A stretch of DNA of 64,000 bases from a virus, in IMG/VR virus record IMGVR_UViG_3300029305_006221, positions 64,001 to 128,000 of that record; one strand, given 5' to 3'. The notes below the pieces were generated by a model that ran no database searches, had not been told where the DNA came from, and saw only the letters and a list, made by a program, of their open reading frames with translations. This document shows positions 5,846 to 62,573 of this stretch, piece after piece; the first letter of the stretch is position 1, and every line of letters starts with the position of its first letter. The position numbers and the translations under genes were made by a program.

Positions 5846-7066
5846 ATGGCAACTTGTTTTTGTGATAAGTGTCAAAAGACAATGGATGAAGGATAGTTTT
5901 ATACCTATCATGATGGAACTAAAACTGAACTTTGTAAAAAATGTATGACACTTCATATTAATAATTTTGATGAGTCTACTTTTGTTTGGCTTTTAGAAAA
6001 AATGGATGTTCCTTACGTTCCTGGTGAATGGAATAGATTACGAGACAACGCAATGGCAAAAGCGAATGATGATCCTCGTAAATTAAATGGCATGTCTGTC
6101 TTTGGAAAATATTTATCTAAAATGAAACTGAAACAATTTAAAGATGCGCGCTGGGCGGATAGTGAGCGCCTATAGGCAGAGGCTGCGCAGAAAAAAGCTG
6201 CATCTGATGCAGAACTAGCAGAATTGGACGCAATGTATCAAGAGCAGTATGATAAAGGGGAAATTTCAGAAGCTTAGTATAGAACATTAGTAAGCACCAC
6301 TGCGCGAAATGCTAATTTTTATTCAAAGGCGCCATCTATAGCTTAGCCGATTGCGCCTGATACCAACTTTTTTGATGAAAATCAATTCTTAGATGATTCT
6401 GAGATCCCAGACCCCGCCGCGTCTTTAACATAGGAAGATAAAATAGCAATGGCTGTAAAATGGGGAAAGCTATACAAACCAAATGAATGGGTTATTCTTG
6501 AAACAGATTATACTAAAATGAAAAAATCATTTGATATTCAAGATGCGGACTCTGAAAATACCTTAATCCTTCTTTGTAAAACTAATTTAAAAGCTAATCA
6601 AGCTATTGACTGTGGAGATATTGAAGGTTATCAAAAACTTGCGAAAGTGGCAGAATCTTTGCGTAAAAGCGCAAAATTTACCGCTCAATAGAATAAAGAG
6701 GAAAAAGGAGATTTTGTTGACTCTGTTGGTGAATTAATAGCGTTATGCGAAAGAGATGGTTTTATTCCTAGATTCGCTACAGATATTCCTCAAGATAAAG
6801 TAGATATGACTTTAAAAGATATGAATGAATATGTGCGCAAATTGGTTACTCAAGACCTTGGTTTCGGACAGCAAATAGAAGATTCTTTAAAAAAGATTAT
6901 GCTTCAAAATGAAATGAATAAAGAGGCGGAAGAGCGTCAAATGGAAGAGGGCGACGATTATGATCCATATGCGCCAAATGAATTGGCTGATGAAGATTTA
7001 ATTGATTATTATGATGAAATTATGAGTCAAAAAATACAAGATAAAAATATTTATACTGAGGTATAA
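5846..7066 (+). CDS. hypothetical protein with an N-terminal zinc ribbon (CFCDKC...CKKC), 406 aa. Possibly a terminase small subunit or DNA-binding protein
   Basis: AAAGGAG RBS, then ATG 5846 with an in-frame TGA just upstream. Open to TAA 7064-7066 through about 7 in-frame TAG codons. Joins ORF-track ORFs 5945, 6449 and 6806, all in frame 2. Sits immediately upstream of terL. Confidence 0.55.
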
Positions 7067-21084: not shown

Positions 21085-24000
21085 ATGGCTAATTAGGGAA
21101 GAATTACTTTTGGCATTGGTTTTAATGTAGATTAGTCTGGTTTAAATTAGCTTAAGGCTTCTTTAGCAAGTTTATAGAATATGCAAACTAGAGATTTAGT
21201 AAATGTAGATTCTAAAGGGAAAGCATAGGCTAAATTACGTGAAATTAAAGAAATGGCTGGCCAAGTAGAAGCTGCTCTTTAGCAAAGTTTTAACCCTGCA
21301 TTAAACACCTATAATATTGATACTTTTAAAAAGAAATTAAATGAAAATGTAGGAACTTTATCTTAGGTAAAAGCAAAAATGGCAGAGGCTGGCGCTGAAG
21401 GTACAATAGCGTTTAGAAATTTAGCTACTGCAATTTCTTCAACGAAATTACCTTTAAGAGAATCTCATGATTTACTTAAGGCAATGGGCACCACCTTAAT
21501 GAACACTGTAAAATGGAGTATTGCATCAAATGCAATTAATACTGTAACAGGTTCTGTTCAAAAAGCTTGGAGCTATACAAAGTAGCTTGATGAATCATTA
21601 AATAATATAATGATAGTAACCGATAAAAGCGCGGATTCGATGGCATAGTTTGCGCGCTAGGCAAATAAAGCCGCAAAAGAGTTAGGTAAAAGCACTAGAG
21701 ATTATACGGATGCTTCTCTTATTTACTATCAATAGGGTCTTGATGATGCATAGGTAAAATCTAGAACCGAAACGACATTAAAGGCGGCAAACGTAACGGG
21801 TTAGTCTGCAGATGTTGTATCTGAATAGTTAACTGCCGTTTGGAATGGTTACAAGGTATAGGCGCAAGAAGCTGAGTTATATGTAGATAAACTTGCGGCC
21901 GTTGCTGCAACTACGGCGGCCGACCTTGAAGAACTTTCAACTGGTATGTCAAAAGTTGCTTCTGCAGCTAATACAATGGGAGTAGATATTGACCAGTTAA
22001 ATGCAATGTTAGCAACTGCTGTTTCTGTAACGCGTCAGGCGCCTGAGTCAGTTGGTACTGCATTTAAAACTGTATTTGCGCGTATTGGCGATATTGAAGC
22101 TGGCATAAGCGATGAAGCTACTCTTGGTGAGTATACGAAATAGATGCAATCAATGGGTATAAATGTCCTTGATACAAATGGCAAACTTCGTGATCAAGGA
22201 GACGTAATTGAGGAAATTGGTAATAAATGGAATCAAATGTCTCGTGAGCAACAAATTGCTCTTTCTCAGACTATGGCTGGTACCAGACAATATAATAATC
22301 TTTTAGCGCTGTTTGATAACTGGAATATGTATGAGCAAGCAATGAAAACCTCTGTAAATGCAGCTGGAACATTGCAGAAACAATAGGACACTTATATGGA
22401 ATCTATTGAAGCGCATATGGAGCAACTTAGAACTGCCGGCGAGCGCGTTTATCAAGCATTGTTAGATCCTGATAGTGCCAATGACTTACTTGATGTATTA
22501 ACTGAAATAGTTGATAAATTTGGTAGCTTTATAGAGTCTATTGGCGGCGGTGGTAATTTATTGATGTCGCTTATTCCTATTTTAACTAGAGTATTTTCAG
22601 GTTCTATTGCAACAGGCTTAACAACTTTTGTAACAAACCTTAAAAATGCAGGCCAAGAAGCAACAACATTAAAATCGGTGCTCTAGGGGATAAATGAAAT
22701 AGGATCCTTAGACAGTTTGACCGAAGCTGATAAAAAAATTAATGATTTAAGACGCACTTTGGTGCTTTTGCGACAACAAGGTGTTATAACAATAGAAGAA
22801 TTTAATTCAATGTCTGCAAGTGTTACAGAGTATGGAGATGCGATTTCAGAAATTGAAAGAAAAAAAGAAAATAGAGAAAAAACTAAAGATAGATTAGGAG
22901 TTTTAACAGATGCAGGCTTAGCAGAAAAAGGTAATCATAATATAGCTAAAGATAAAGCGAAAAGAGAAAAATATTTCGACAGAGTCTATACTTTTGGAGA
23001 TGAGTTAAGCTCCAAAGGATTATCGGAAGAAGCCATTAAATCTTCTATCGGAGATAAAAACGCAGCTCTTGCAAAGAGTGGTGCAGCAAATGCTTATAAA
23101 GAAATTAATGACGCATTGATTTCAATTAAAAATAATATAGATGATATTGATAATAAAAATAAAGAATTTACTAAGGGTATTTAGACCACTATTGCTAATT
23201 AGGAAAAATATAGTAGAACCATTATAGATTCTAAGCGATAGTTTGAGAAACTTGTGGAAAAAACAGAATCTTTAAAAACTTTTTACACTGATACGACTGA
23301 AGGAAAAAAATTTGAAAATTATGAAGCTAGAATTTCTAAATTATTATCAAAAGAACATCTTGACTCTGAAGAAATGGCGATATTGCAAAAATTGCAAAAT
23401 GAATATAGTAGTTTTATTAACAGTCATTTACAAGAAGTGTCGTCTTTAGGCAGTAAAGAGGAACTAGAATCTATTGATATTAAAATTAAAGAATTAACTG
23501 CTTCATCAAATAAGTTTAAACAGTCTATTGAAGATATAAATAAAGCTCATAGTAATCAAGAAGATTAGATTGAAAAAATTAAGTCGAAGTTTGAAGAACT
23601 TGATAAAGAAGCTAAAAAATTAGAAGATGCAAATTTACTTGGCGGAGCAAGCAGAGGAGATTTAACTAAAAGAGCTAATAGCATTAGAAATTTACTTGAT
23701 GACACTAGTAAAAGAGGAGAGCTCTTAAAAGATCCAGAAAAATTATCACATTTATATGAAGAATATGAGGCGACACTGCAAAAAGCAATAGCAGAAGGTA
23801 GAAAAGAAGTTAAAAATTTATCTACTGATATAGATAAGGGTATAACTGATGGAGTTGGAAAAGCAAAGGCTCAAGCAGAAGGTCTTGGAGAGGCTTTAAG
23901 AAATGCTCTTTCAAAAGCTTAGCTAGAGTTAAAGATAAAATAGTTTGTTAATTTAACTTCCAATATTGCAATGGCTGGTAATGCACTTCGAAATTTAATT

Positions 24001-27000
24001 AATTTAGGAGACATTTGGAATAATCAAGATTTAGAACTAGGGGAAAAAATATTTTAGACAATAACCAATGTAGGCTCCTCTTTAAGTATGCTTCTTCCTA
24101 CCATTACAATGATAACAGCTGCAATTTCTAAGAAAACTGCTGCAACTACTGCTTCAACAGGCGCTACAGCCGCTTCTGCGATAACTGATATGTTTTATGC
24201 TAAAACACAGGACGAAGTTACCGAAGAAATGACTGACTAGGCATTTTGGTTAAAATCACTAAAAAGTCTTTAGAACGATCTTAATGATGAACAGAGAAAA
24301 GCAATTGCAAACACATTGAAGGAAGCTGCGGCAAGAAAAAAGAATAATGAAGAGCTTGCTAAAGAAGCTTTGCTTAAAGATACTGAGCAAAATATAAACG
24401 ATAATAAAAAATCTTTTAATCTCTTTAAATCAAAAAAAGCTCCAACAACAGCAGCAGGTAAAGTTTTAAATGTTGGTGGAGGCGCCTTAGCGGCGGCCGC
24501 CGCAGCATATATAGGAGCAACTTTAACTTCTAAGCTTGTTACCTCTTTGTATGATTAGCAAGAAGCCAATTTTAAAGCGGCTTCAGAAGCAGCAAAATAG
24601 GCCGAGTCTAATTTAAACAAAGTAACCGAAGCCTATGACAATTTATCAAATTCACTTTCTAATATTTCTTCTTTAAAGGATTCTTTAAAGGATTTAACAG
24701 AAGGTAGTGTTGAATGGGAAAAAGCGGTTGCTGATATTAATGCTGAAACTAGGTAGCTTATTGAAACATACCCAGAAATAGCTAAAAATGGCTATTATGA
24801 AAATGGAGTATTAACCCTAGACTCAGAAAGTTAGTTAAAAGTTGAAAGAGAATTGTTAAACCAAAGATATAAAGCTCAAAACTCTAAAATAGTAGCAGAT
24901 GAGACTAAATAGGCAGCAGAAATTGCTGCAAAACAAGAAAGTCTTGCAGGCGAGCTTAATTATTTGAATGAACTTTCAGAATTGGGGACTGGGGCAACAG
25001 TAGCAATTTCTCTTGCGCTGGGTGGTATTTTTGGGTTAGCAACTGGTGGATTAGCAGTTCCAATTATTGCTGGATTAGGACTTGGAGCCTTTGGAGGAGG
25101 ATTTTCTACATACCTTGAAGAAGAAGAAGAAAATGATACAGAAGAGGCTTTAATAAAAGTAGTAAACAAATTAGCAGAGTCAGAAGAGAAAGACTTAAAT
25201 GGATATTTACAGAATAGCTCTAAGCATCTCGCAGAATTGTTAGACAAGAATGTTGAAGAGTTAACAAATGCAGAAAGAGCCTTATTGAGTAATACCAGTG
25301 AAATAAATGCTTTAGCTTAGGAGATAAGAAAAGCAAATGAGTTAAAGCTCATGCAAGATACTGAGTTTTATCGTCAAAGATATTTGTCTCAAGGATATTC
25401 TGTAGAAGATGCGGCTGCAATGGGAGGTATGACTGCATCAGCTACCGATTATGCTGCAGAAGAAGAGGCGATAAGTAAACGCGCCGAATAGATAATGAAA
25501 AAGAAGGGGAATAATAAAGATCTCATTATCTAGTGGGCAGAATCTTAGGGAATTACTTTAACCAAGGACGATATTAAAGAAACAGGCGGAGCTAATTTTA
25601 AATATAAAAACGCTAATGGCGAATGGGTATCAATGAGCTATGAAACAATAGCTCGCCAATAGGCCACCACAGAAGTAAAAAATACTGCCTCTAGTGAAGT
25701 AAATGCATTAGAATACAAGAAATAGCTTAACGCAATTGTAAAAGGTATTTCTTTAGAAGGAACAGATATTTTAAAATCACTTTTGGCTTCTAATAAAGAA
25801 ATTTTAGCTGAAAATATTGAAGAGTTTAATAATGCCACTATTGATGAACTACAAAAGATATGGGAAAGGGCTGATGAATTAAATTTATCAAGTGAGGCAA
25901 AAAAAGCGCTTGGAAAAACTATTGAGGAAGCTAAAATATATTAGGAAAATATTGCCACAGTAGAAAACTGGGGTGAAAGCACTTATGATGCTATTAATAA
26001 GATTTTCAATGATAATGGCGAATGGTCTAACATTTGGAATAATTTTAGTGCCTCTTAGATTAGAGCTTTTGGTAAAGCATTAACTAAAATCGAATTATTC
26101 GGTGGAAAACAAGCAGCTAAAGCAGCAGAGTCTATATTTAGTAAGATGACTGATGCAGATGCAGAATCTGTGCTTACTAATATGAACTGGGAATCAGAGA
26201 CTTTACTTGCAGACTTTTCTGCAGAAATGGAAAAAGTTGGTAAAGTTTTAGATTATACTAGTGGAGAAGGTTTTGCGATTGCGTATGCTTTATCTCGTGC
26301 TAATGATTAGATGGTGATTTCCAAGGAAGCGTGGAAAGAAACTGCAAGCATTCTTGAGTCATTAAATGAAGAGCAAGCATCGTTAGATATGGATAATTAT
26401 TAGCATCTTATTGAGATGTATGGAACAGCTATCTCTAAGTATTTTACTCAAATGGAAGATGGCACTTATAGATTGATAACTGCCTCTACTGATTTTGCTA
26501 AGACTATTGATGACTTGGAAGAAAGAAAAATAGAAGCAGCTATTAAGACTGAAATTGAGTCTATTAGGACTTTTGACGAAGAGTATGATAAAATTTTAAA
26601 TGATTTTGTTTTTAATACGATACCTGATTCCGACGATGGAATTTCTGCTTCTAAAATTAAAACGCTTGATGAAATAATTAAGGTAAAAGGATATGAAAAT
26701 GCTAGTTTAACAGGAAAAGATCTTAATAAAACTGAAGGTTTTTCTGAATCACAAACTCATGCGGTGTTATAGGGAGCACTTACTCTTGATGAATATAAAG
26801 GATTAAATAAAGTAATAGATTTTGTTTATACTAAAACATATGGCGATAACTGGCGAGATAATGGTGATGCTTGGAATGATATGACGGAATAGGTTGGCGG
26901 AAAGAATTTTATCATTGATTTAGACCCCGCTGGAGATTCAACATCATTTACTTATGATGAATTACAATAGGAATTTACAGAAGAAGAAATAAAAAAATGG

Positions 27001-30000
27001 TTTAAAAATACGACATCATCTGGAGGATATTATGCAAATAATGTTGAAGCTAACTATGCACAGCTTACTAACGCAATCGCTAATCAAGCAGCCAAAGAAC
27101 GAAATGAAGCTCTTGGAGTCGATAATAAATATGTAAAAAAATCTGATATTGCTCAATGGTTATATTAGTTATCTGCTATTGGCGCGTTAAATAGTGAGCT
27201 TTATACCAAATATTCACAAGAATTAGACGGACTTCCCCCAGAGTCGGAATCATTAAAAGTGCCAGAAGATGGTGGAGATTGCGCTTTTGTTGCTGATGTT
27301 AAAAAAGACCTTGAATCAAGTGATGTTAAACCAGATACTGAAAAATTAAACGAATATATTGATCAGTGGATTAGAAGCGCAGATTCTCAAGAAGAGTTTG
27401 ATGAACGAGTAGCAGAAGCTCAAGGACTAGCTTCAACAGTTTTAGGAGACGAGTTTGATGAAAAAGCCTTTAAAGATACGGTAAAAGAATTACAAATTTC
27501 ATTAGGAGTAAAACTCGAAACTAAGGCGCTTGAAAACTTCAAAACTGAGATGGATCAAATCTCTAATTTAATTTCTAATTTAGATAGTAAACTATCACAC
27601 TTATCATCTGTGGCAGATTCCTTGTATGGACAAGATAGACTAGATTATATTGAGGAATAGAATAAGGTTATTCAACAATAGATAAAGCTTCTTGAACGTC
27701 AAGCTAAGATTGAGTAGCTAGAACTCAATAGGCAAAGAACGTTTACCCCTGGAGAAAACAACACTACTTATGAGGCTGCGTTAAAAGATCTTGCTCGATT
27801 AGCAGGCTATGCAAATGCTGATATTATGAGTGAAGCTGAGCTTTGGAACGCACTCGGTATTACAGATGTAACAACTCAAGAAGGTGCTTAGAATTCTCTT
27901 TTAAATATAAGAGAAATGTTTGCTCAGCGTGGAATAGCTGCTGATGAAAATCTTAATAAGTTATACCTTGCAGCGATTGGTAATCTAGAAACTATTTTGG
28001 AGCCAGTTACTTCTGGAAAAACAAAGTATGCTATAGATGAAAAGAAAGCTCAAGAGTTAGCTAATAATCTTGTTAGTTTTGAACATAAAATTGAATTTAC
28101 TTTAGATGAAGGTGAATTAAAAAGAGAGTTTGAGGCACTAAAACGAGAAGTATTTATTGATGAAGAAGATTTTTCAGAAATAACTAAATCTTATATTACA
28201 GATTATCAAACCGCAATTAGTGATCTTACAACTATTGAAGATGCTCTTAAAGAAATTGATAGTTTAAACATTTCTGCAGAAGCAAAGCTTGAGAAAAGAA
28301 AAGAATTAACTTCTCAATACGGAGAAAAGTTAAAAGAGATTTAGTAGATTGAAGAATCTATTGATCAATAGAGACTTGCAGCTTTAAATAAAATTTCTGA
28401 GGGATATGAAAAACAAATTTCTTATCTTGAAGAAATTAATGGTCTTTTAGATACTCAAAGAAGCATGATAGAGCTTATTTATGGCGAAGATGCGTATGAG
28501 ATGTTAAATTCTTATTATAGTTCTTCTCTTGATAATGCATTAGCTATTCAAGAAAGCACTCAATAGAGATTTGCAGCAGCTGCTTCAAACTATAGCAGAA
28601 TTAACGATACTACAATGAGTGACGAAGAACGCGAAGCTATTATTGAAGAATATACTGCAGCAGGACAGGCAAGCGCAGAAGCGATGTATTCGGTAATGGA
28701 AGCGCGCCGTGATAAATATCTGAATGATACAGAGATTGCTATAAAGAATTTTAATAAGAGTGTTTATGGTAGTTTAGATACAGAGCTATTTACCAGTGAA
28801 TGGGATTGGACTAAATCTCAAATGGATAAATACTATGATTCTGTATAGAGCTTGTTCGAAAAAGATAAACTTGCTGTTCAATTTGATACTGCGGCTAATG
28901 AAGCTACTTCACTTCGTGCACAAGAGCAGATTAATAAACTTAAGAGAGAAGAATTGGCGCAACTTGAAGAAATTGAGAAATTAAGTGAGTATGATGTGCA
29001 ACATGCACAAAAGAAGCTTGATATCCTTTAGGCCGAAATTGCGCTTCGTGAAGCTCAAGAGAATAAAACTCAAATGCGCTTAATGAGGGGCGCAGATGGC
29101 TCTTATAGTTATCAATATGTTGCTGATTAGGCGGCAATTGTTGAAGCTTAGAATAAACTAACAGAAGCTCAAGATGCTTTATATAATATGGAACTAGATG
29201 AATACACTTCTTCTATTGATGAATTTTAGGGCGCAATGTAGGATTTAGCGGATGTAATTCGCAAATTCGGAGAAGATGGTATTTACACCACAGAAGAATT
29301 AGCATTGATTGAGAAGCGTAAAAAAGAAATTTAGAATTTAGCAGAGAGAAGCATAAGAATTAGAACCAATGTTTTTGAATCTGCTGAGTTAGCGGCTTCA
29401 ACTTTTGGTAAAGATCTTTCTGAGCTGACCCAAGGAACTGTTCTTTAGATGACTAAAGATATCGATGCTATTATTAATGAGGTAGCAAAAAATGGTATTG
29501 ATAATAGTTATCAAAGTTTAATGGATACAATGCTTACTATTTCTAATAAATATTTAGATAAATAGAAAACTGGAGCAGAAGAATTGGCCACTGTAATTGG
29601 TTCTGCTGATCCAAGTTCTGGATTAATCGGCTCTTATTAGACATTATCAGAAAAATAGGATGCGGTTATTAAACAATATTAGACTGAATATTCAGAGGTA
29701 TCTATTCTTGCTGGACAATATGATATCCTTAAAGCTTCTCTTGAGCGAGTTAGGGATATGTATATTGCAATTGCAAACGCAAGAAAATTAAGCAATAAAG
29801 AAGAGGAAGAAGAGATTTCTGGACCTGGTCCTGACAATACTAGAACTGGTGGACTACGAAAAACTAATAAAACAAGTAGTGAGGTTGCTAGTTTATTTAA
29901 TCAAGAAGTTTATTTGTATTCAGAAAGAAGCCGATTCGATGAAGAGGGAAATAGAGTAGCAAGCTGGAGAACAGGAAATATTCATACCTATAATAGTTCT

Positions 30001-30588
30001 GGTGAATTAGATATTATTACTGTTTCTGATCATACTGGTAAAGATATGAAGAACACTAAATATACGGTTATAAGTTCAGATATATGGACAGATGCAGAAG
30101 GTTGGGGATATGTGCAAGTGCGAGATAAAGATGGAGAAATTTTTTATCTTCCAATTGAATTTTTAAAAAATGAGAATAAGAATTCAGAGAACGGCCATTG
30201 GGCAGTATTAAATTCTGGATTATTTGATGGTCTAGAAAAATATGATACTGGTGGATACACTGGTGAATGGGGCACAGATGGTCGTATGGCAATGCTTCAT
30301 GAAAAGGAATTGGTTCTTAATAAAAAAGATACTGAGAATTTCTTAGACGCACTTTCAATTCTTCGTGAGCTTAACCTTTCAATGATGGCGCAAATCGGCC
30401 GCTTTGGAATGCCATTTAGCAATTCACAAAATTCTATCTTATAGCAATTAGCTTCTCAACCAATTGAGCAAAATGTTACAATTCAAGCAGAGTTCCCGAA
30501 TGCGACAGACAAAGATGAGATTAAAGAGGCGTTTAATGACCTTATTAATCTAGCTACTTAGTATGTGCATTAGGATGATAAATTTTAA
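21085..30588 (+). CDS. tail tape measure protein, 3167 aa with dozens of TAG codons read as sense
   Basis: AAGGAGG RBS, then ATG 21085. Thirteen ORF-track fragments from 21379 to 29758, all in frame 1, are joined only by TAG. No in-frame TAA or TGA until TAA 30586-30588 across the inter-fragment gaps I checked by hand (23568-24316, 24558-24964, 25320-26416). TP901-family core motif IGNKWNQMSREQQIALSQTMAGTRQYNNLLALFDNW at about 22200. Long Ala/Gly-rich and coiled-coil regions. Confidence 0.8.
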
Positions 30589-30620: not shown

Positions 30621-30642
30621 AAGAGAGAAAAGGAGAGATAAT

Positions 30643-33600
30643 ATGAGTAATATAGTTGAAAATTTATTTTCAGCGGTTGATATTCAAATTGATAGTAAAT
30701 TGCGCCAAACGGACTATACGCGCACCATAATAGGAACTGTCATTGGATGCATTGACCCAGAATAGCGTATTTATAAGATAAACTATCAAGATACTATATT
30801 TGAAGCTTAGGCGCCGACTGGAGAATATGGTAAAGATGAGAAAGTTAAGATACTTACCACCAATGTTGAAGATGAGTCACTTAAAGTGATTGTTGGGCGC
30901 ACCTCAGTTAGTGATTTAACCACTTTAAAAGAGAGCTCTTTATATACCTCTTTAGGCTCTTCTATTGTAGAGGATAATGAAGAGGATGATATTGTTGAAT
31001 ATACTCTTTCTGATTCTAAAACAATACTTTATGAAAAAGGCGAGTCTAATAACCTTTTGAAAGTGAATGAGACTTTATTAGAAAAGCATCTTAAAGAGTC
31101 TATGATGTTTTCTATTGGCGCAGAAGTTTTAGCTGAACTAAGTTCTGGAAGTATAGATTTAGTTTTTGAATTAAGTTACAAAGGATAGCTTGTTAAATCT
31201 GCTGTAAAAATAGAAATTACTCAAAATAGCTTTGATTTTAAATCTTATCAAAGTTATTTTAAAGATTATGAATTTGATACTATTGAATCTATTTATTTGG
31301 AAAAAATAAATGAATTATCTAATTCAGAAGTATTAAAAATTAAAAATATAACCTTTAATATTATAAAAGAAAACGAAAGTGCCAATCGTATGTAGGCGGT
31401 TATCCATGGATATGAAGGAGATACTCTTCACGATAAAGTAGAGCAGATTACGATTGAGGCAAGAATGATGTAGGGCGCCACTTTTATAGATCCTGATTTA
31501 TGTGGTTTTTAGTGGTATATTGAGGATCCTTGGGAAGAGAGCGGCTGGAAAAAATTGGAAACGGCGCGCTGGTAGAGACCTATTGTATAGCTTACTTCAG
31601 AAGATATATATTATTCTCCAATGAAATATAAGGTAGAAATTACTTATGGAGAAATGATTTTTGAAGCTAATACTATTTTAAAGAATTTAACCCCTTCTTA
31701 TTCTGGTTTATATATCTCATAGCAAACAGTAGACTCTTATGAAAAAGTTCTTATTGCAATGAATGAAAATGAAAAAGAGTGTCAATATAAATGGGAACAC
31801 ATAGATGTTTATGGTCAAAAAGACACATCCTATTCTACTGAACAATAGATATCAGTGTTCTTAGATAGTAATTATAATCTTTGGAAATGCCATTACAGAG
31901 ATGGTGACAAGTATATTGGATATGCTTCTATAGTTATTAATAATGATGATTTATTATACTTGCCTGAATAGACTGTGGAATTCGCTTTTAGCGATAATGA
32001 AGATCATGCACCTTTTGATGGACCTTGGGCACCTCGTATAGGAGAAATAAGTAATATTGATAAACCAATACTTTGGAAGCGAGTTACTAAAAATATAGAA
32101 GAAGGTAAAAATACAATAGTAATAAGTTCGTGTAAAGAAAGAAATATTGCTTATATAGAGACTAAACAACAAGATCTTTATCGTATTTGGAGAGTATATT
32201 ATACTAATGGTTTTATTGAATATAATGATATGTTAATTTCAGAATAGGATGATGGATACTAGTATATTCTCTATGGAGAGAAAGATGGGTTGATTGATAT
32301 TGATAAGAAAAAAGAAGCAACTTTAGAATCGGATATAAATACTGATTATCCATATCTCTGTTATGAAAAAACAAATACTGAAACAAGGATGGTATTAGCA
32401 AAACTAGGAACCGCTGACTATACTGGAATTCCTTCATTAACCTTCTATTGGATTGGTAATAATTATCCTTATGTAGGAGTTGAAAATAGCAAGGTTTATT
32501 TTGGGAAGCCTGATAAAGAATATGACGTATGGACGACAGAGGCTTTAGAAATTGATAATGAATATAAAAATAGATATAGAACTGAATGTCCTTATAACTA
32601 GCTTGGTAAGCTACACTATAACGAAAATACTAAAGATTGGAGTAATTTCGTTTTAGATGGTAACTATTCAGTAGATGGTCTTCCAGGAGCGCCCGGCGCG
32701 CCAGGAGAGCCCGGTAAAGCCGCTAAAAGCTTTCGATTAAAAACGGATGCTTTAATTTATAAAAAATCTTCTCCAGAATATATTGCTTTTTCAATAGAAA
32801 TAAGCGGATATGAAACTTCTGAATGGGAAATTAAAGCGGAAGTTCTTAAGGATAGCATTTGGACATCTGTAAATGATTTGGGTTTTGGAATAGTTTTAAA
32901 TCCAGATTCTAAAATTTTAACATTAGAGCATATTTCATCATTATATTCTGAAATTCGCTGCACTGCAGAATTAACCTCCAAAGAAGCGGTTGATGTTGTT
33001 ACACTTACTCGAATTGAAGATGGAGAAGCTGGTTTTAATGTTATTATTTCTAATCCGAATATTATTTTTGATAAAATTAATAATACTGCAATAGAAGTTG
33101 CAGATATTGAAGTATACCAAGGGAAAGAAAAAATTGAATGCTATGACACTAAGCCTATAACAAACGATTCTTCTAAGCGCTATGTCGCAGTAGTATCAAA
33201 CAAATATCAAAAAGAAAGTTTAAATAAACCTGACAATGCTTTAATTTAGAATTTAGTATTTTAGAAATCAGCGCCAGAAGAAGAAAAGTTGACAGCAATG
33301 ATTTCTAACCCAGGCGAGTCAGGTAAATATTATTTGCAAATTGAGATATATGATAACACAATTGTAGCAAACGAAGGATCTGTCCCAGAAATAATCTTGG
33401 ACTCTAGTATTAATTGTTTGGTTATCGATAATGGTCTTCGAATTAATATTTATAGTGAAAACTACTCTTTTTAGAATGCAGAAAAAAAATCAGTTCCTTT
33501 AGAGATTGCTGTTTAGCAAGGTCTTGCAACAGTAGTAGATAGGACAGGCACAATTTTAACAAATGTTGGCTATGAATTTTAGTTTTTTCAAGAAGGTTAT

Positions 33601-35592
33601 ATTACAAAAGATGGAGAGGAAGTAAAGGATGAGACCTTTATTTAGAATATCCTAACAAAGCAAGAAGGAGCCTATTATCAAATAGAGAATCCTTGGGGAT
33701 TAGGGCTAGAGTTAGAATATACCATTTATAAGATTAAATTAAATTTTATGATTTATCTTGATGGAAAACAAATTGGAGAGAATATTTAGTGGATTTATAT
33801 CTATTATAATACAAAAGGGGAAAATTCTATTCCTTATTTAGAACTAAGCTCTTCTAATGAAACAATAATGATTGATGAAAGCTTTAATCCTATTAATAGT
33901 TTTGTTAATTATTTTAATTATTATATCAATGAAGAAAAGCAAATAATAGATATTGAAAGGTTGTCAATTTCTCCCAAATCTAATGATACCTGGGCTTATG
34001 AATATAAAAAGCTGGGCAATGATCAAGTAATTTTCACATTGTTAGATTTTCCAAAATATAACGGTGCGGAATAGTTGTTTAATATAATATATACCCCTGA
34101 AACTGGAAATCCAGTAAGAGGAATGTTTACTTTAAGAGTAGCGTAGAAAGATTTTTAGTATTAGATACTTTTTAATGAACACCCTAATGGTATTATTGAT
34201 ACAACAAATTCAAAAGCAACTGATATCTTTTTAGAAACCATATCTATAAGTTTTAAAGATGATGAAAACATATAGCAGGTTTACACTACTCCCGATTCAT
34301 TACCAAGTGGGTATTAGTTATCTTACCTAAAAAATAATGAAGAAGAAGTTATTTTTACAGGAAATGAAGAATTTTCTGTAGAACTAGGATTAACAGATAC
34401 AGTAATATTTAATTTTAAAAAATTAGATACTTCTTATGGAAATTTAATAATTTTATCAAAAACATTAAGAAGTATTTTTAATGGATCAGAACTAACTACT
34501 TATAAGGCTTTTAATACTTTGACCAATAATGGAGAAAATACTGGTATCATTTATTTAGCTAAAAATCTTGTAACAGATGGGGGAGATTATGATATTGAAG
34601 ATATGAATGGATCAAAGTATCGATATGTTCAAGTATACCCTCGTCCTATTTTTGAAGATTTTGACGGGTCTAATAAATTCTCTACCATTCCAAATGATAT
34701 TGGAGGAATAGGTATTCTTTATAATGCAGATTCTGTTGAGCTTTTTATTAATGCAAGTATGATTAAAACTGGAATTCTTAATGCAGACCTGATTAGTGCA
34801 GGAGCAATAAAGATTGGAGATAAATTCTATGCTAATGCAGATAAAACAGCGATTGATCCAGAAGTAAAAATAGGTGGTTTTAAAGTTGCAGAGACCTATT
34901 TATATTCAGGAGAACGCACCAGTGTATGGGATACTCAAGCAGAGGGCGCATATTTTGGAACTAACGGAATTTCAGTTGGAAGTGGATCCTCTGGTATGAC
35001 TGCCTCTTTTGCAGTTGACACAACAGATAAAGGCATTGTTGGAGGATGGTATTTTACTGGATAGGGTTTTTAGACTAAAGATGTATATAATCAAACTTAT
35101 GCAAATTAGTCTAGCTCTATTGATGCATTTGGGCTTGGACCGGCGCCAAGCGATCAATCAAAAGGATATTATATTTTAAACGACGGAACTGCATTTTTAA
35201 AATATCTATTATTAGAAGAATATGCTGTAACAAGTTCTGATGAAAAATATAAAAATTCTATTTCTGCTAATTTAGAAAAATATTCTATTTTATTTGATTA
35301 GCTACAGCCAGTTAGTTATAAATATAATAAAGATGAATCATAGTAGACTCATTTTGGTTTTACAGTATAGAAAACACAATAGGCTTTCTCAAAAGCTAAC
35401 TTAAATTCATAGGACTTTGCTATTGTGCAATGTTCAAACGATATAAATGGTTTAGTGTATACTGAATTCATTGCACTTAATACCTATGAAATTTAGAAAC
35501 TTAAGAAATAGGTTTCTGAATTAGAAACTCAAAACAGCAAATTGGAAGAACGTATTGCTGCACTTGAAAAAATTATTATCAATTCTAATTAA
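30643..35592 (+). CDS. giant multidomain tail protein (distal tail, tail-associated or fibre type), 1649 aa with a short collagen-like G-x-y run and a C-terminal coiled coil
   Basis: AAAGGAGAG RBS, then ATG 30643. Frame 1 is continuous through ORF-track ORFs 30886, 31975, 32290, 32878, 33289, 33868 and 34519 via TAG only. GLPGAPGAPGEPGKA at about 32680-32725. Ends at TAA 35590-35592. Confidence 0.55.
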
Positions 35593-58577: not shown

Positions 58578-58606
58578 ATTATAACTTAATTTTTTATAAA
58601 ATTCAA
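58578..58606 (-). promoter_or_regulatory. sigma-70 near-consensus promoter (TTGAAT-17-TATAAT) on the minus strand
   Basis: Minus strand reads agaTTGAATtttataaaaaattaagtTATAATtat. Confidence 0.6.
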
Positions 58607-58797
58607 TCTTCTACTTTAATATATAAGCCACAGTTACATATCGTTCCTTTTGGCGCTTCACGAAATTCTTTACACATACATAAAGTATCTTGATTTCTAA
58701 AAGGCTCCAATACACAAGGGCAATGACCTTGAGATGCACGAATTGATGCGCGTATTTCCTGCGCAAGTTCTTCGCTTGCATATTTTTGAATTTTCAT
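58603..58797 (-). CDS. small triple-CxC protein (CPC...CMC...CNC), 64 aa. Resembles the ferredoxin-thioredoxin reductase catalytic subunit
   Basis: Reads ...QGHCPCVLEPFRNQDTLCMCKEFREAPKGTICNCGLY. The FTR catalytic chain has CPC/CPC/CHC at similar spacing. Confidence 0.35.
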   Translation of the reverse strand: MKIQKYASEELAQEIRASIRASQGHCPCVLEPFRNQDTLCMCKEFREAPKGTICNCGLYIKVED

Positions 58798-59279
58798 TAG
58801 CTAATCCTTTCTGCATATTGATTTGGACTAGCAAGTTTTACTCCAAGTATATCATCAAAGTGAGATTCCATATCTGGAATATAGCGTCCAAATTTTACAA
58901 TAATATTTGAAAAATGTTTTAATTGATTTAATTGATCTTCAATCTCATCATCATAATATCCTGTGTAAATAACAACATCATCTTCTATTAAATAACATTC
59001 TCTAAAAACAAAGAGAAAGTCATATAAGTCTTCAAAGGTATCAAAAGGCTCCAATCCTTGAAATACTATTGCATGTGTAAACGGAGTCTTTTGATATAGC
59101 TCAATAATAGAGTCTATTGAATAATCAAGAGTTGGCATATTTGCCAATGTACTATTTTGACACACTGGCATGCCGCATTCTCGATCACATTTAAAACCTT
59201 TGCAATAAGGAGTTTCTATTGTTAAAGAAGGAATTTTATAATTAACGAAATCTTCTGTTATAATTCCTTTGACTTTCAT
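58797..59279 (-). CDS. nrdG: anaerobic ribonucleotide reductase activating protein (small radical-SAM NrdG type), 160 aa
   Basis: Cys cluster YCKGFKCDRECGMPVC. Overlaps the nrdD stop. Typical nrdD-nrdG arrangement. Confidence 0.65.
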   Translation of the reverse strand: MKVKGIITEDFVNYKIPSLTIETPYCKGFKCDRECGMPVCQNSTLANMPTLDYSIDSIIELYQKTPFTHAIVFQGLEPFDTFEDLYDFLFVFRECYLIEDDVVIYTGYYDDEIEDQLNQLKHFSNIIVKFGRYIPDMESHFDDILGVKLASPNQYAERIS

Positions 59280-62200
59280 TTTTTATTTACTGGCTCCCAT
59301 TTTCTCATTTTATATTCATTTGTGCGCTCTTTTGACCAAGTTTTAATCGGTGTATAAAAGCCTACAATTCTTGTATATTCGGTTTCAACTGGACGACCAC
59401 AAACGGGGCATTCGTGACCATAAAACGCATGATTATTATCGCAAGCTTGGATTTTAGTATTAAAAGCAAAATATGTTACTCCAGCATCAGAAATATAGTT
59501 AACCATTTCCCAAGCTTTATCAAAATTGTCAAATGGAGCATCAATATTGGCGTGAAGAATTGAACCTCCATTGCAGTAGCCATCAAACTCCGCGGCAATT
59601 CTAACACGTTCCGCAAGAGTAGTTTGAATACCAAGAGGAATAAATTGATTGCCATATAAAGGAAGATCAAAGATATCAGAATCTGGATAGAAGAATTTAT
59701 CTTTACGCATTAGTTTGGCGGCGGCTGACTCTCCAGGGATCTGCTCTGTGTTAATATGATAGTCGGCACTCATATCTTCAATAAACTGATCAGCAACCTC
59801 ACGCATCGTTTGGAAAATTCTCTGACCAAGCGAAGACGCTTCTTCTGTATAGTATACATTTCCAAAATCATCTGTGCGAGTATAGCCAAAGCGCTTCATT
59901 GTTTCATAAACGCCAATAAAGCCAATAGTGTTATAGAGATGTTCAAAATCTACAAGCCCCATAGAGAAATTGGGGAGAAGTCCTTTTTCAACATTACGAC
60001 GAATAATATTTCTAACACAATGAAGAGCCTGAAGATTAAGTAAAGTGCGCTTTCTTAATTCCATTAGATATTCAAATTCACTATTCGTATCAAGCGCCAG
60101 GCGCGCAAGATTAATAGTAGATACTTTTACAGAACCAACTTTAAGCGCAGTACCTCCGATACTATTAAAATAACCCAGATCCTTAATATCGCTCTTTAAA
60201 CGGCAACAGTTGGAAAGTGAAGTCACAGAGTCATCAATAAACAAGTTACTATCTGACCAACGCATGTTATGCTTTACGGCCCAGCGCGCAAATTCCTCAT
60301 CTTGGAACTCTCCATCTTGTTTTAGCAAAGAGATTGAAAGCACTGGGAAAGTAAACATATTATGAGATCTAATTTCTGCAACTTCTTCCATGTACCATTT
60401 TTGAAACTCAATAATATCCTCTTCATAGTCAATCATAAAGCTGCCATCGGGAAATTCGCTACCGCCAAATAATGCTTCATAATAGGGGCGATCAAATACA
60501 CTTGTGTTAGTAAAAGCGCTTTGCGAACCATCACGAACATAAGGCTGATTTACGGCGTAGACAAAACGCTGAAAGTTCTGGCGCGCATATTTTTCAGCAT
60601 TGCCACTTGAAGCTAAGCCAAGGTAATCAGACTCAACGTCTTTATGCCAAAAATACCACATATAAGGAATAAGGTTAGGCAAACCGACGGCGCCTGATGA
60701 ACGATTAGATGCATAACTAATATATTCTTTAACGAAGTCTACAAAAGTTGTTAAATGTTTTGCAGGTTCGGGATTAAATGGAGCTCCTATAAAATAAAGT
60801 CCTTTTTCGGCTAAATCTTTTAGATCATAAGCAAAACAGTTATGAGATAGAATATTATTACAAATAAAATGACCTGTTTCTGTTGTTAAGTCATATACCT
60901 CAGGGCATTCATCAATATACTCTGAGTTATCAATAATTGAAACCCATCCATAGTTGTATTCATATTGTTTATTTTTAAAATTGCCTTTTCGAGTTAAAGG
61001 CGTATATTTTTCTTGAATTTTAACGCTTCCAATGTTTAAAAAATATTCCTCATTTGTAAGAGTAAAGCCGATACCGAACATTGGTAGCTTTTGTTCAAAG
61101 CTTCCAATTCTATTATATCTAAATGGTGTTCTATCTCCTACAAAGATTCCTTTTGAGTGCAAATACATGCTTAACTGGCGACAAAGAACTTCTGAAGCAA
61201 TACGGATATGACAATGTCTATTCTTATATCCATCAATAGTACCATCTCCATCAATCATTCCTGCAATAACCCCATCCATAAAATCTGATGGTAATTGCAT
61301 AAAATAAGAAGGCAAACATTTATTAACAGAAGTTTGTTTATTGAATAAAGAAATTAACCATTTTTGGAATTCACTGTTGTGCAGATAAAATTTTCTATCT
61401 CCACTTTCTGCAAAAGGAATTTCATGAGTATTTAAAATTTGTCTCATTTTCTCTGCTTGAATAGAATTTAATTTTTGTGCTATAACAAATTGTCTATTAT
61501 TTATAACATTGCCTTCAGATAAGGCCATGCCAGTGACCCATCCTAAATCTTTTAATTGATTTTGTTTAAAAGGCAATTCGCAATTGAATGAGCAAGAGGG
61601 TTGAATGGTAAAGACACGATATTCATCATTTACATCTTTTGCAGGAATGTCGCCACAATCTGTAATAATAGGATGGTCTTCAGTTACAATTTGCGATAAA
61701 CCATTTGCTAACTTAATAAAACGCATAGACTTATTATTTGTGTGTTTAACTGCGCGAGTAACCTTAGTCCAACATTTTTCTCCAGTTTCTTCATTAATAT
61801 CAAGTACCTCAATATTTTTTGGAAATAATGCTTTTTGCTCAATAGATACATCATAACGCTCTTCTGCTTCGGTATCCATTGCAAGAATATTGTCATATAA
61901 CTCTTTTAAAGCAAAAGTATATTCACGGTGTATTCTATCTCTTACTGTTACAAGCTCTTCACCTTTATAACAGTAGTGTTTAAAAGTGCTAGTATCAGCA
62001 TCATGCATGTAAAGCTGTCCTACCCATTCAGATTTTAACCATTCATTGGCTGTTTTAAATCCAAACTCTTTTTGCATTTCATAATGAATTTTATTATATG
62101 CCAATAATTTTCTATGTGGTTTTGGCATTTCATTAAGAAGTGTTACTATATCTTTTTTACTGACGTTACTATTGCCATCAATACTCGCATCCGCAACTAC

Positions 62201-62350
62201 TTTGGTATCAATAAAATTATCAATAAAATCAACATAGCTCAATTGATTATCGTCAAAGCCATTGAGTCTAGCAATATCTGTTCCATATTCAGCCTAAAGC
62301 TTATTATAGGCTGTGGTAAAATTCTTTTTTAGTCTAACATTAATGTCCAT
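59276..62350 (-). CDS. nrdD: anaerobic ribonucleoside-triphosphate reductase with an intein, 1024 aa from ATG 62350. One in-frame TAG at codon 19. The ORF track starts at TTG 62242
   Basis: Extein motifs LYMHDADTSTFKHY / CFAYDLKDL, and a C-terminal Zn ribbon and glycyl-radical region (CPVCG, RIVGFYTP). Upstream of TTG 62242 the frame stays open through TAG 62296-62294 to ATG 62350. That ATG overlaps the nrdH stop (ATGGACATTAATG). Encoded N-terminus MDINVRLKKNFTTAYNKL(TAG)AEYGTDIARLNGFDDNQ. Confidence 0.85.
60839..61972 (-). mobile_element. intein (378 aa) with a LAGLIDADG homing-endonuclease domain, inserted in nrdD
   Basis: N-terminal Cys (CYKGEELVTV), block B TEDHPIIT, LAGLIDADG-like motifs LGWVTGMALSEGNV and GVIAGMIDGDGTIDG, C-terminal ILSHN followed by +1 Cys. 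The extein junction HY|CFAYDL matches the conserved NrdD N-terminal region. Confidence 0.7.
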
Positions 62351-62573
62351 TTGGGTGCTCCTTTATCCAGTTATTTATCCATTTAATAGCGTTTGGTCCA
62401 ACAAAGGCTCCAACTTCTGTAACTAAAACAGGAGCTCCTTGATATCCAAGTGCTATAATAGCATCTATATCCTCAATATGAGTATATTGAATTCCTGCTG
62501 CGTCCATCTTCATTTTAAGAACTTTGCATTGAGGACACCCAGGCTTTGAGTAGAAAGTAAATTTCATTGTCAT
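62340..62573 (-). CDS. nrdH: NrdH-like glutaredoxin, 77 aa
   Basis: CPQC redox motif at the N-terminus. Adjacent to nrdD. Confidence 0.65.
   Translation of the reverse strand: MTMKFTFYSKPGCPQCKVLKMKMDAAGIQYTHIEDIDAIIALGYQGAPVLVTEVGAFVGPNAIKWINNWIKEHPNGH

Follow-up and report, generated by a model that had tools for sequence, protein, structure and literature searches.

A predicted intein with a LAGLIDADG homing endonuclease at the active-site cysteine of a phage anaerobic ribonucleotide reductase

The interrupted nrdD gene and its relatives

The DNA considered here is a stretch of 64,000 nucleotides (nt) of the IMG/VR virus record IMGVR_UViG_3300029305_006221 (positions 64,001 to 128,000), hereafter called the window. 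It contains a minus-strand nrdD gene, predicted to encode an anaerobic ribonucleotide reductase (RNR), whose reading frame holds an inserted segment of 378 codons at positions 60839-61972. We consider it probable that this segment is a canonical class-1 intein with a two-motif LAGLIDADG homing endonuclease, lying in frame in the nrdD of a tailed phage. Translation of the minus strand of this interval yields exactly 378 codons with no stop (CYKGEELVTV...ICNNILSHN) and, because the plus-strand translation of the same interval is full of stops, the feature was assigned to the minus strand. The segment is preceded by ...HDADTSTFKHY (...GQLYMHDADTSTFKHY), and its C-terminus reads ...LSHN, with Cys at position +1 opening the C-extein CFAYDLKDLAEKG (CFAYDL...). 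The initial annotation of this DNA, which had given the interval and the length of 378 amino acids (aa) and had left the strand unstated, is exact to the base, and the features that it had listed, namely the Cys start, the ...ILSHN end followed by Cys, a TEDH block and two LAGLIDADG-like motifs, are all present in the translation (Table 1); chance would not account for such a segment.

Removal of the segment had been said to restore a contiguous NrdD, and this is borne out by two comparisons. The spliced product of 646 aa, in which an in-frame TAG at codon 19 was translated as Gln (see below), matches the NCBIfam model PRK08271 (anaerobic RNR) in a single stretch (residues 3-641 against positions 3-627 of 631) with 538 bits, which is 7 bits below the strict equivalog cut-off of 545, whereas the unspliced precursor matches the same model in two stretches. 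Against Thermotoga maritima NrdD (tmNrdD; 4coi/4u3e) the spliced product is colinear over residues 3-603 (E=1.6e-144) and has no gap at the junction, where ...HDADTSTFKHY-CFAYDLKDLAEKGL stands opposite ...HDRHHAALMPY-CFAYTLKPIVEKGL of tmNrdD. The Pfam family NRDD matches the C-terminal 520 residues (E=4e-86). Within the spliced protein, HY/CFAY, SNCCRL, CDNNHAFYGHECPVCG and TRIVGFY align to YCFAY, SCCRL, CEDGHAFYGERCPVCG and MRIVGYL of tmNrdD, respectively, the Cys/His cluster in CDNNHAFYGHECPVCG being presumably a Zn site. By these alignments the host protein classifies as a class III anaerobic RNR, NrdD, of the T. maritima-like subclass NrdDh. The roles of the corresponding active-site residues in tmNrdD (the Tyr-Cys pair, the SCCR-type motif, the Cys/His cluster and the glycyl radical) have been described (PMC4493059).

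The insertion lies after residue 126 of the 646-aa mature NrdD, and the +1 Cys aligns to chain residue 125 of tmNrdD (4coi), corresponding to Cys79 of the T4 enzyme and Cys175 of that of E. coli. Cys125 of tmNrdD is conserved in all RNRs; Tyr124 is directed at the substrate ribose and shows complete conservation within subclass NrdDh (PMC4493059). The intein parts the equivalents of these two adjacent active-site residues, and the catalytic Cys doubles as the +1 nucleophile. Because the insertion separates the conserved Tyr from the active-site Cys, it is reasonable to expect that the unspliced precursor is catalytically dead and that only the spliced 646-aa NrdD is active.

Table 1. Coordinates in the window of the intein, its motifs, the host gene and the neighbouring genes, with the evidence for each.
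Feature	Position	Strand	Basis
Intein, 378 aa, Cys1 to Asn378 (probable)	60839..61972	minus	open frame, empty alleles, family alignment, profile, structure model
Cys1 (block A, putative nucleophile for the N-S acyl shift), codon TGT	61970..61972	minus	Cys in most aligned members
Block B TxxH, T97-E-D-H100 (TEDH), intein residues 97-100	61673..61684	minus	T97 and H100 invariant in 24 sequences
LAGLIDADG homing-endonuclease domain, about intein residues 126-330, within the Hint fold (predicted)	60983..61597	minus	AlphaFold2, Foldseek, Pfam
LAGLIDADG motif 1, VTGMALSEG, residues 146-154; Glu153 putatively metal-binding	61511..61537	minus	G148 invariant; E153 and G154 nearly invariant
LAGLIDADG motif 2, IAGMIDGDG, residues 236-244; Asp243 putatively metal-binding	61241..61267	minus	G238, D241 and G244 invariant; D243 nearly so
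Blocks F and G, VYDLTTETGHFICNNILSHN, with Asp361, His368, penultimate His377 and terminal Asn378	60839..60898	minus	family alignment
SHN, then Cys (block G), residues 376-378	60839-60847	minus	translation
+1 Cys, first C-extein residue, putative transesterification nucleophile	60836..60838	minus	alignment to 4coi
nrdD precursor gene, 1024 codons and TGA (N-extein of 126 aa, intein of 378 aa, C-extein of 520 aa)	59276..62350	minus	in-frame reading, model matches
N-extein, 126 codons, ending ...MHDADTSTFKHY; last Tyr equivalent to tmNrdD Tyr124	61973..62350	minus	alignment to tmNrdD
C-extein, 520 codons and stop, with SNCCRL, Cys/His cluster CDNNHAFYGHECPVCG and glycyl-radical motif TRIVGFY	59276..60838	minus	Pfam NRDD, tmNrdD alignment
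In-frame TAG, nrdD codon 19	62294..62296	minus	Gln at the aligned position in 27 of 30 related genes
Glutaredoxin-like gene, 77 aa, CPQC motif, upstream, its end overlapping the nrdD start	62340..62573	minus	Pfam Glutaredoxin, 25.0 bits (cut-off 22.9)
nrdG-like activase gene, 160 aa, downstream, overlapping the nrdD stop codon	58797..59279	minus	Pfam Fer4_12, 22.5 bits (cut-off 22); position
Cys-rich open reading frame, 64 aa (HCPC...CMC...CNC), directly after nrdG	58603-58797	minus	no Pfam match

A scan of IMG/VR seeded with peptides of the C-extein only returned 75 nrdD contigs. At 71 of these the site is empty, the match to the C-extein starting one base after the match to the N-extein ends, and four contigs (L005, L007, L061 and L065) have the 378-aa segment between the exteins, in a copy of 79% identity. 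The nearest empty alleles (L008-L011, with C-exteins 88-89% identical) have the same 30-residue junction peptide as the exteins of the window, QLYMHDADTSTFKHY/CFAYDLKDLAEKGLY (...TSTFKHY/CFAYDL...); the empty junction in L008 or L009 reads TTTAAACATTAC/TGTTTCGCTTATGA, and the ligated junction peptide of the spliced NrdD is ...TSTFKHYCFAYDLK... Near-identical DNA was not found in the phage collection by megablast of the gene.

Homologues of the intein itself number about 30 in the protein database, at 29-80% identity, and every one for which flanking sequence is available lies in NrdD at the same site. Twenty-three same-site homologues (33-80% identity) retain T97/H100, D361, H377/N378 and the +1 Cys; both acidic residues of the LAGLIDADG motifs are present in almost every one of them. 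In an alignment of 24 sequences T97, H100, G148, D241, G244, D361, H377 and N378 are invariant, as are V359, Y360, T364, F369 and N372 in the C-terminal block, and conservation is at least 90% at E153, G154, D243, H368 and the +1 Cys. Of the 22 aligned members that extend over position 1, the window among them, 20 have Cys there; P0019 has Ser, and P0027 is unaligned at this position. One of the homologues (P0006) has been labelled “intein/homing endonuclease” by JGI.

Each of the 24 family members matches Pfam Intein_splicing, 22 match LAGLIDADG_3 (best E=1e-9) and three match Hom_end. When solved structures were searched with a profile built from nine intein-only sequences, the TliVMA intein (E=2e-11), the Pab PolC intein (E=7e-9) and I-DmoI (E of about 3e-3) were retrieved; the single sequence of the intein gave only non-significant matches to PDB sequences (E of at least 0.24). 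A model made by AlphaFold2 with the 24-row alignment as input (predicted local distance difference test, pLDDT, 92.9; predicted template modelling score, pTM, 0.92) has beta-rich termini and, from residue 137 to about 322, a centre of helix/beta repeats; for the endonuclease domain a complete double alpha-beta-beta-alpha-beta-beta-alpha fold is predicted with high confidence. Foldseek placed the TliVMA intein (7qsu; E=7e-19, template modelling (TM) score 0.62) first among PDB entries, followed by PI-PfuI (5e-15), the PhoVMA intein, PI-SceI (2e-12) and PI-TkoII. Stand-alone LAGLIDADG enzymes (I-DmoI, I-OnuI, I-Tsp061I and I-SceI) and mini-inteins (Pho RadA, Pab PolII, TFIIB, NrdJ-1 and Ssp DnaB) were also matched, several of the latter with a root-mean-square deviation of 2.6-3.4 Å over about 125 columns. 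In the predicted structure, the N- and C-terminal segments of the intein form the Hint fold. Family, structural and empty-allele evidence together support what had been proposed for this DNA, namely a full-size intein with a LAGLIDADG endonuclease domain in the N-terminal region of NrdD.

Selection was estimated by comparing the window with L003, which of the intein-bearing relatives is the closest and whose intein is 79% identical. The ratio of non-synonymous to synonymous substitution rates (dN/dS) was 0.058 in the N-extein (synonymous divergence, dS, 2.0) and 0.033 in the C-extein (dS 2.2); for the whole intein it was 0.16 (dS 0.91), made up of 0.095 in the N-terminal splicing part (dS 0.76), 0.19 in the endonuclease part (dS 1.2) and 0.044 in the C-terminal splicing part (dS 0.39). 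In amino acid identity, too, the endonuclease part is the least conserved (70%, compared to 90-96% in the splicing parts). Purifying selection on all parts speaks for an intein that is able to splice, an endonuclease that still functions and an NrdD that is being maintained; our confidence that the intein can splice is high, and that its endonuclease is still active moderate. The dS of the exteins (2.0-2.2) is more than twice that of the intein (0.91), which also has the lower GC content (31.3%, compared to 36.8% for the exteins). Together with the occupancy of four contigs out of 75, these lower values of the intein fit a lateral spread by homing that postdates the divergence of the host genes.

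TAG recoding and gene neighbourhood

The host gene had been correctly named as nrdD in the initial annotation, which missed the in-frame TAG and the true N-terminus. The open reading frame (ORF) called under genetic code 11 (59276-62242; 988 aa, TTG start) is shorter than the real gene at its N-terminus, where relatives have about 37 extra residues. Further upstream, the in-frame reading from the ATG at 62350 is MDINVRLKKNFTTAYNKL-TAG-AEYGTDIARLNGFDDNQLSYVDF..., and the TAG at codon 19 is probably a sense codon read as Gln. When TAG is not counted as a stop, the longest open frame in the window grows from 1005 codons to 3167, with 69 TAG in frame, a second frame of 1656 codons (38 TAG) appears, and the plus strand is almost fully tiled, with long read-through ORFs such as 21085-30588 (+) and 30622-35592 (+). 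The minus-strand nucleotide-metabolism genes have zero or one TAG each, and the intein has none. A tRNA scan of these 64 kb returned no suppressor tRNA. One structural protein of the window is 45% identical (tblastn) to a protein of phage phAss-1, the founder of a gut phage group that reads TAG as Gln (PMC10607447); among described phages, this group is the closest to that of the window. Searches of PHROGs with the structural ORFs returned only “unknown function”, virion and tail labels, and the taxonomic placement was taken from the phAss-1 match. Judged by its reading frames, this phage reads TAG as a sense codon.

In the nrdD genes of relatives, in-frame TAG often stands in columns that elsewhere contain Glu, Asp or Val, and not Gln (columns 21, 25, 195 and 280); as these columns are variable, the alignment does not settle the amino acid at TAG in the relatives. 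Two of the intein-bearing homologues (P0001 and P0002) stop after ...EPA, at a position that is Q in relatives; this points to an in-frame TAG. The public gene call is the 988-aa, TTG-start, code-11 ORF (L085 1038-4004), with a weak Intein_splicing match and without the first 36 residues of NrdD. In this way the public annotation hides a 646-aa NrdD that would be produced only after TAG read-through and protein splicing.

The neighbourhood of nrdD is a nucleotide-metabolism module that comprises guanylate kinase, glutaredoxin, nrdD, an nrdG-like iron-sulfur (Fe-S) protein, a small Cys-rich ORF and dUTPase. Neighbouring genes overlap at both ends of nrdD: its ATG (62348-62350) falls within the end of the glutaredoxin gene upstream, and its TGA (59276-59278) within the start of nrdG. 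The glutaredoxin is a candidate for the reductant partner of NrdD. The 64-aa Cys-rich ORF is in the same position as CST077 of Clostridium phage c-st, which has been annotated as weakly similar to the catalytic chain of ferredoxin-thioredoxin reductase, and could be part of the reductant system of this NrdD subclass. In phages, nrdD is generally an auxiliary gene, and the description of the host as an “essential” RNR gene in the initial annotation was overstated for a phage-borne gene of nucleotide metabolism; the 71 empty relatives show that the intein itself is dispensable.

Proposed mechanism and rival explanations

The following steps are proposed by analogy to characterised inteins. Translation would give a precursor of 1024 residues, for which the TAG at codon 19 must be read as an amino acid, and the Hint domain would fold from intein residues of about 1-125 and 331-378. 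After an N-S acyl shift at Cys1, the +1 Cys would attack the thioester (transesterification), cyclisation of Asn378, helped by His377, would release the intein, and an S-N shift would produce the native Tyr126-Cys127 peptide bond. During co-infection, the excised intein may cut an intein-less nrdD at the ...TTTAAACAYTAY/TGYTTYGC... junction, and recombinational repair would then copy the intein into the cut allele (homing). The intein would be a selfish passenger that survives at a site which the host gene can neither change nor delete imprecisely. The well-supported same-site family is placed at the residue most conserved among RNRs, a Cys common to all RNR classes, and clearly illustrates how inteins target residues that the host cannot change.

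Several points weigh against this reading. Splicing, endonuclease cleavage and homing are all inferred. The window sequence alone scores marginally below the curated cut-offs for Intein_splicing (E=1.2e-8; 35.4 bits, cut-off 35.8), LAGLIDADG_3 (17.7 bits, cut-off 22.5) and TIGR01445 intein_Nterm (23.0 bits, cut-off 24.5). The case for an intein rests on the family-level, structural and empty-allele evidence, and the domain search suggested with the initial annotation succeeds for the family and falls just short for the window by itself. Two family members (P0023 and P0024) have lost the acidic residues of the LAGLIDADG motifs, so that decay of the endonuclease does occur in the family. Values of dS near 2 are saturated, which makes the argument that the intein is younger than its host gene semi-quantitative and only indicative. 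Finally, a hand count put the identity of the window to L003 at about 84% in the 45 nt on each side and revealed no clear co-conversion tract in these flanks.

In the strongest of the alternatives, the intein splices and its endonuclease is no longer active, the element being a vertically inherited relic that is kept because its imprecise loss would destroy NrdD. We regard this as unlikely. It draws on the decay seen in P0023 and P0024 and in the degenerate second motif of a Lachnospiraceae metagenome-assembled genome (MAG; L081), on the low identity of the endonuclease part relative to the splicing parts, and on the flanks without an evident co-conversion tract. However, the copy in the window has both LAGLIDADG motifs with Glu153 and Asp243, its complete double-repeat endonuclease fold is modelled with high confidence, and the dN/dS of the endonuclease part indicates ongoing purifying selection, while the lower dS of the intein compared to the exteins and its patchy occupancy point to recent lateral spread.

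A regulatory role appears improbable. Under such a scheme Cys1 would, on oxidation, form a disulfide with the +1 Cys, or with another Cys of the intein, and would block splicing, so that the oxygen-sensitive NrdD would mature only in a reducing, anoxic environment. Redox-trapped inteins are known in other systems, and several properties of the locus would suit one: both splice nucleophiles are Cys, one of them the catalytic Cys of NrdD, the host enzyme is strictly anaerobic, the gene directly upstream, overlapping the start of nrdD, encodes a glutaredoxin, and C371 in block F/G is nearly invariant. The same data fit a plain selfish intein equally well, however, and the 71 relatives that do without the intein speak against a control function. 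In addition, position 1 is Ser in the same-site inteins of P0019 and L081, which is hard to square with a conserved disulfide of Cys1, and a glutaredoxin gene also stands beside NrdDs that are empty at this site, e.g., in phage c-st. Just as improbable is an extension of this idea, in which NrdD would be under a two-layer post-transcriptional control consisting of the redox-sensitive intein gate, possibly with the translationally coupled glutaredoxin, and of TAG read-through at codon 19; if true, it would tie NrdD production to the recoding state of the phage.

That the 378-aa segment is an ordinary lineage-specific domain of NrdD, or a dead intein retained after maturation, is very hard to maintain. 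The marginal scores of the window sequence against the curated Pfam and NCBIfam intein models leave some room for it, but 71 of the 75 related loci are precisely empty and, for this reason, an ordinary domain is not what the segment represents. Nearly identical NrdDs lack exactly this segment, and the junction is identical in the closest empty alleles when their exteins are aligned to those of the window, the comparison that had been suggested at the outset. The carriers retain the Cys/His-Asn/Cys splice residues, which are invariant across copies of 33-80% identity, and NrdDs with the segment as an ordinary domain devoid of these residues, the counter-example named beforehand, were not encountered. 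The segment also parts the active-site residues that match Tyr124 and Cys125 of tmNrdD, and the strong purifying selection on the exteins (dN/dS 0.03-0.06) would be hard to explain if the enzyme were disrupted for good. A group I intron or other RNA element at the site is ruled out by the continuous frame and by the lack of an Rfam match in the window.

Relation to known inteins and other homing elements

The nearest solved relatives of the probable nrdD intein are the TliVMA and PhoVMA inteins (7qsu, 7qss and 7qst), PI-PfuI (1dq3), PI-SceI (1vde) and PI-TkoII (2cw7), all of which have a Hint domain split by a double-motif LAGLIDADG domain and, like the window intein, Cys1, TxxH, His-Asn and a +1 Cys. 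Such solved inteins are its best matches in structure (E=7e-19 to 2e-11, TM of about 0.5-0.6) as well as in profile searches (E=2e-11). On the other hand, they are only 11-18% identical to it, their hosts are archaeal or yeast, and they reside in V-ATPase, RNR of class I/II or DNA polymerase. The window intein is also more compact, with 378 aa compared to about 454 aa in PI-SceI and PI-PfuI, and a separate extra DNA-recognition region was not identified in it. As a compact Cys1/Cys+1 intein with a new LAGLIDADG specificity, it might serve, after characterisation, as raw material for protein engineering or meganucleases.

Much closer are the same-site inteins (P0001-P0027, L003-L007 and L081-L083), which have an identical insertion point and the same conserved blocks at 24-80% sequence identity. 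Besides phages, the site is occupied in cellular MAGs, namely those of a Thermotoga sp. (P0027), a sheep-gut Lachnospiraceae (L081), Candidatus Iainarchaeum (L082) and a Clostridia member (L083); the L081 intein differs in having Ser1 and a degenerate endonuclease. By this distribution, the position before the active-site Cys is a recurrent, cross-domain intein target, used in phages, Firmicutes MAGs, Thermotoga and a DPANN archaeon. Among these same-site inteins that of the window is an allele of its own, 79-80% identical to its closest relative. In the open-access literature on NrdD intein insertion sites, no paper was found that names the site equivalent to Cys125.

Inteins and group I introns are well known from phage RNR genes, and the reported cases include a putative intein in the nrdD of Clostridium phages c-st and D-1873 (PMC3653736). 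As in the window, the nrdD that is interrupted in c-st belongs to the T. maritima-like subclass (exteins 42% identical), and the c-st gene set likewise includes glutaredoxin, nrdG, nrdD and dUTPase, but in c-st nrdG precedes nrdD. The insertion sites differ: the c-st intein lies between the SCCR cysteines (...ALASC/CFDGQQ...ITHN/CRLTSS), and the window site is 212 extein residues upstream of it. The c-st insertion was considered as a possible copy of the same intein and rejected, given its SC/CR site and the lack of detectable similarity in tblastn. A second, unrelated intein at SNC/CRL (CFDGSQ...MTHN/CRLKS), homologous to that of c-st, was observed in L071 (2966-4000) and L073 (2972-4000); the window is empty at this position. 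The NrdD intein of Eggerthella phage EL753P1, the sole weak tblastn match among isolated phages (26% identity), was also set aside, as it occupies another site, at the finger-loop Cys.

Other selfish homing elements at conserved parts of phage nrdD are group I introns and homing endonucleases, either intron-borne or free-standing, among them the T4 nrdD intron with I-TevII and the elements of Jug phages, in which fragmented nrdD genes have been described (PMC12880540). These elements are removed at the RNA level, whereas that of the window, with its continuous frame, Hint motifs and lack of an Rfam match, would be removed at the protein level. In the nrdD genes of relatives, out-of-frame insertions were observed at at least five other sites (L063 2843-4000; L064 922-2120; L072 3066-4000; L080 3048-4000; L074 3704-3981 and 4226-5169; L067 2081-2355 and 2542-4000; L077 1537-2485 and 3296-3521). 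Three of these are short (226-275 nt), several contain GIY-YIG-like ORFs (IYKITN..NKVYIGQS) and one an HNH-like ORF; Rfam confirmed a group I intron in just one of them, L074:3704-3981 (91 bits). The L074 contig also has, closely downstream of nrdD (6580-6800, +), a HEARO RNA identified by Rfam (HNH endonuclease-associated RNA and ORF; 120 bits). A number of the intein-bearing homologues (P0005-P0011, P0013, P0016, P0019 and P0022-P0024) end soon after ...NR[ST]SG with a conserved tail that is not NrdD (...FFSANQQGRICG or ...ANGEG), which looks like read-through into a conserved intron at SSG/AVG. The sequences compared here make this nrdD lineage a hotspot of homing elements.

The result is chiefly one of annotation and bookkeeping, and no new biology is needed to account for the evidence. 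Phage nrdD and other RNR genes were already known to carry inteins, and the element in the window is a new allele of this known type.

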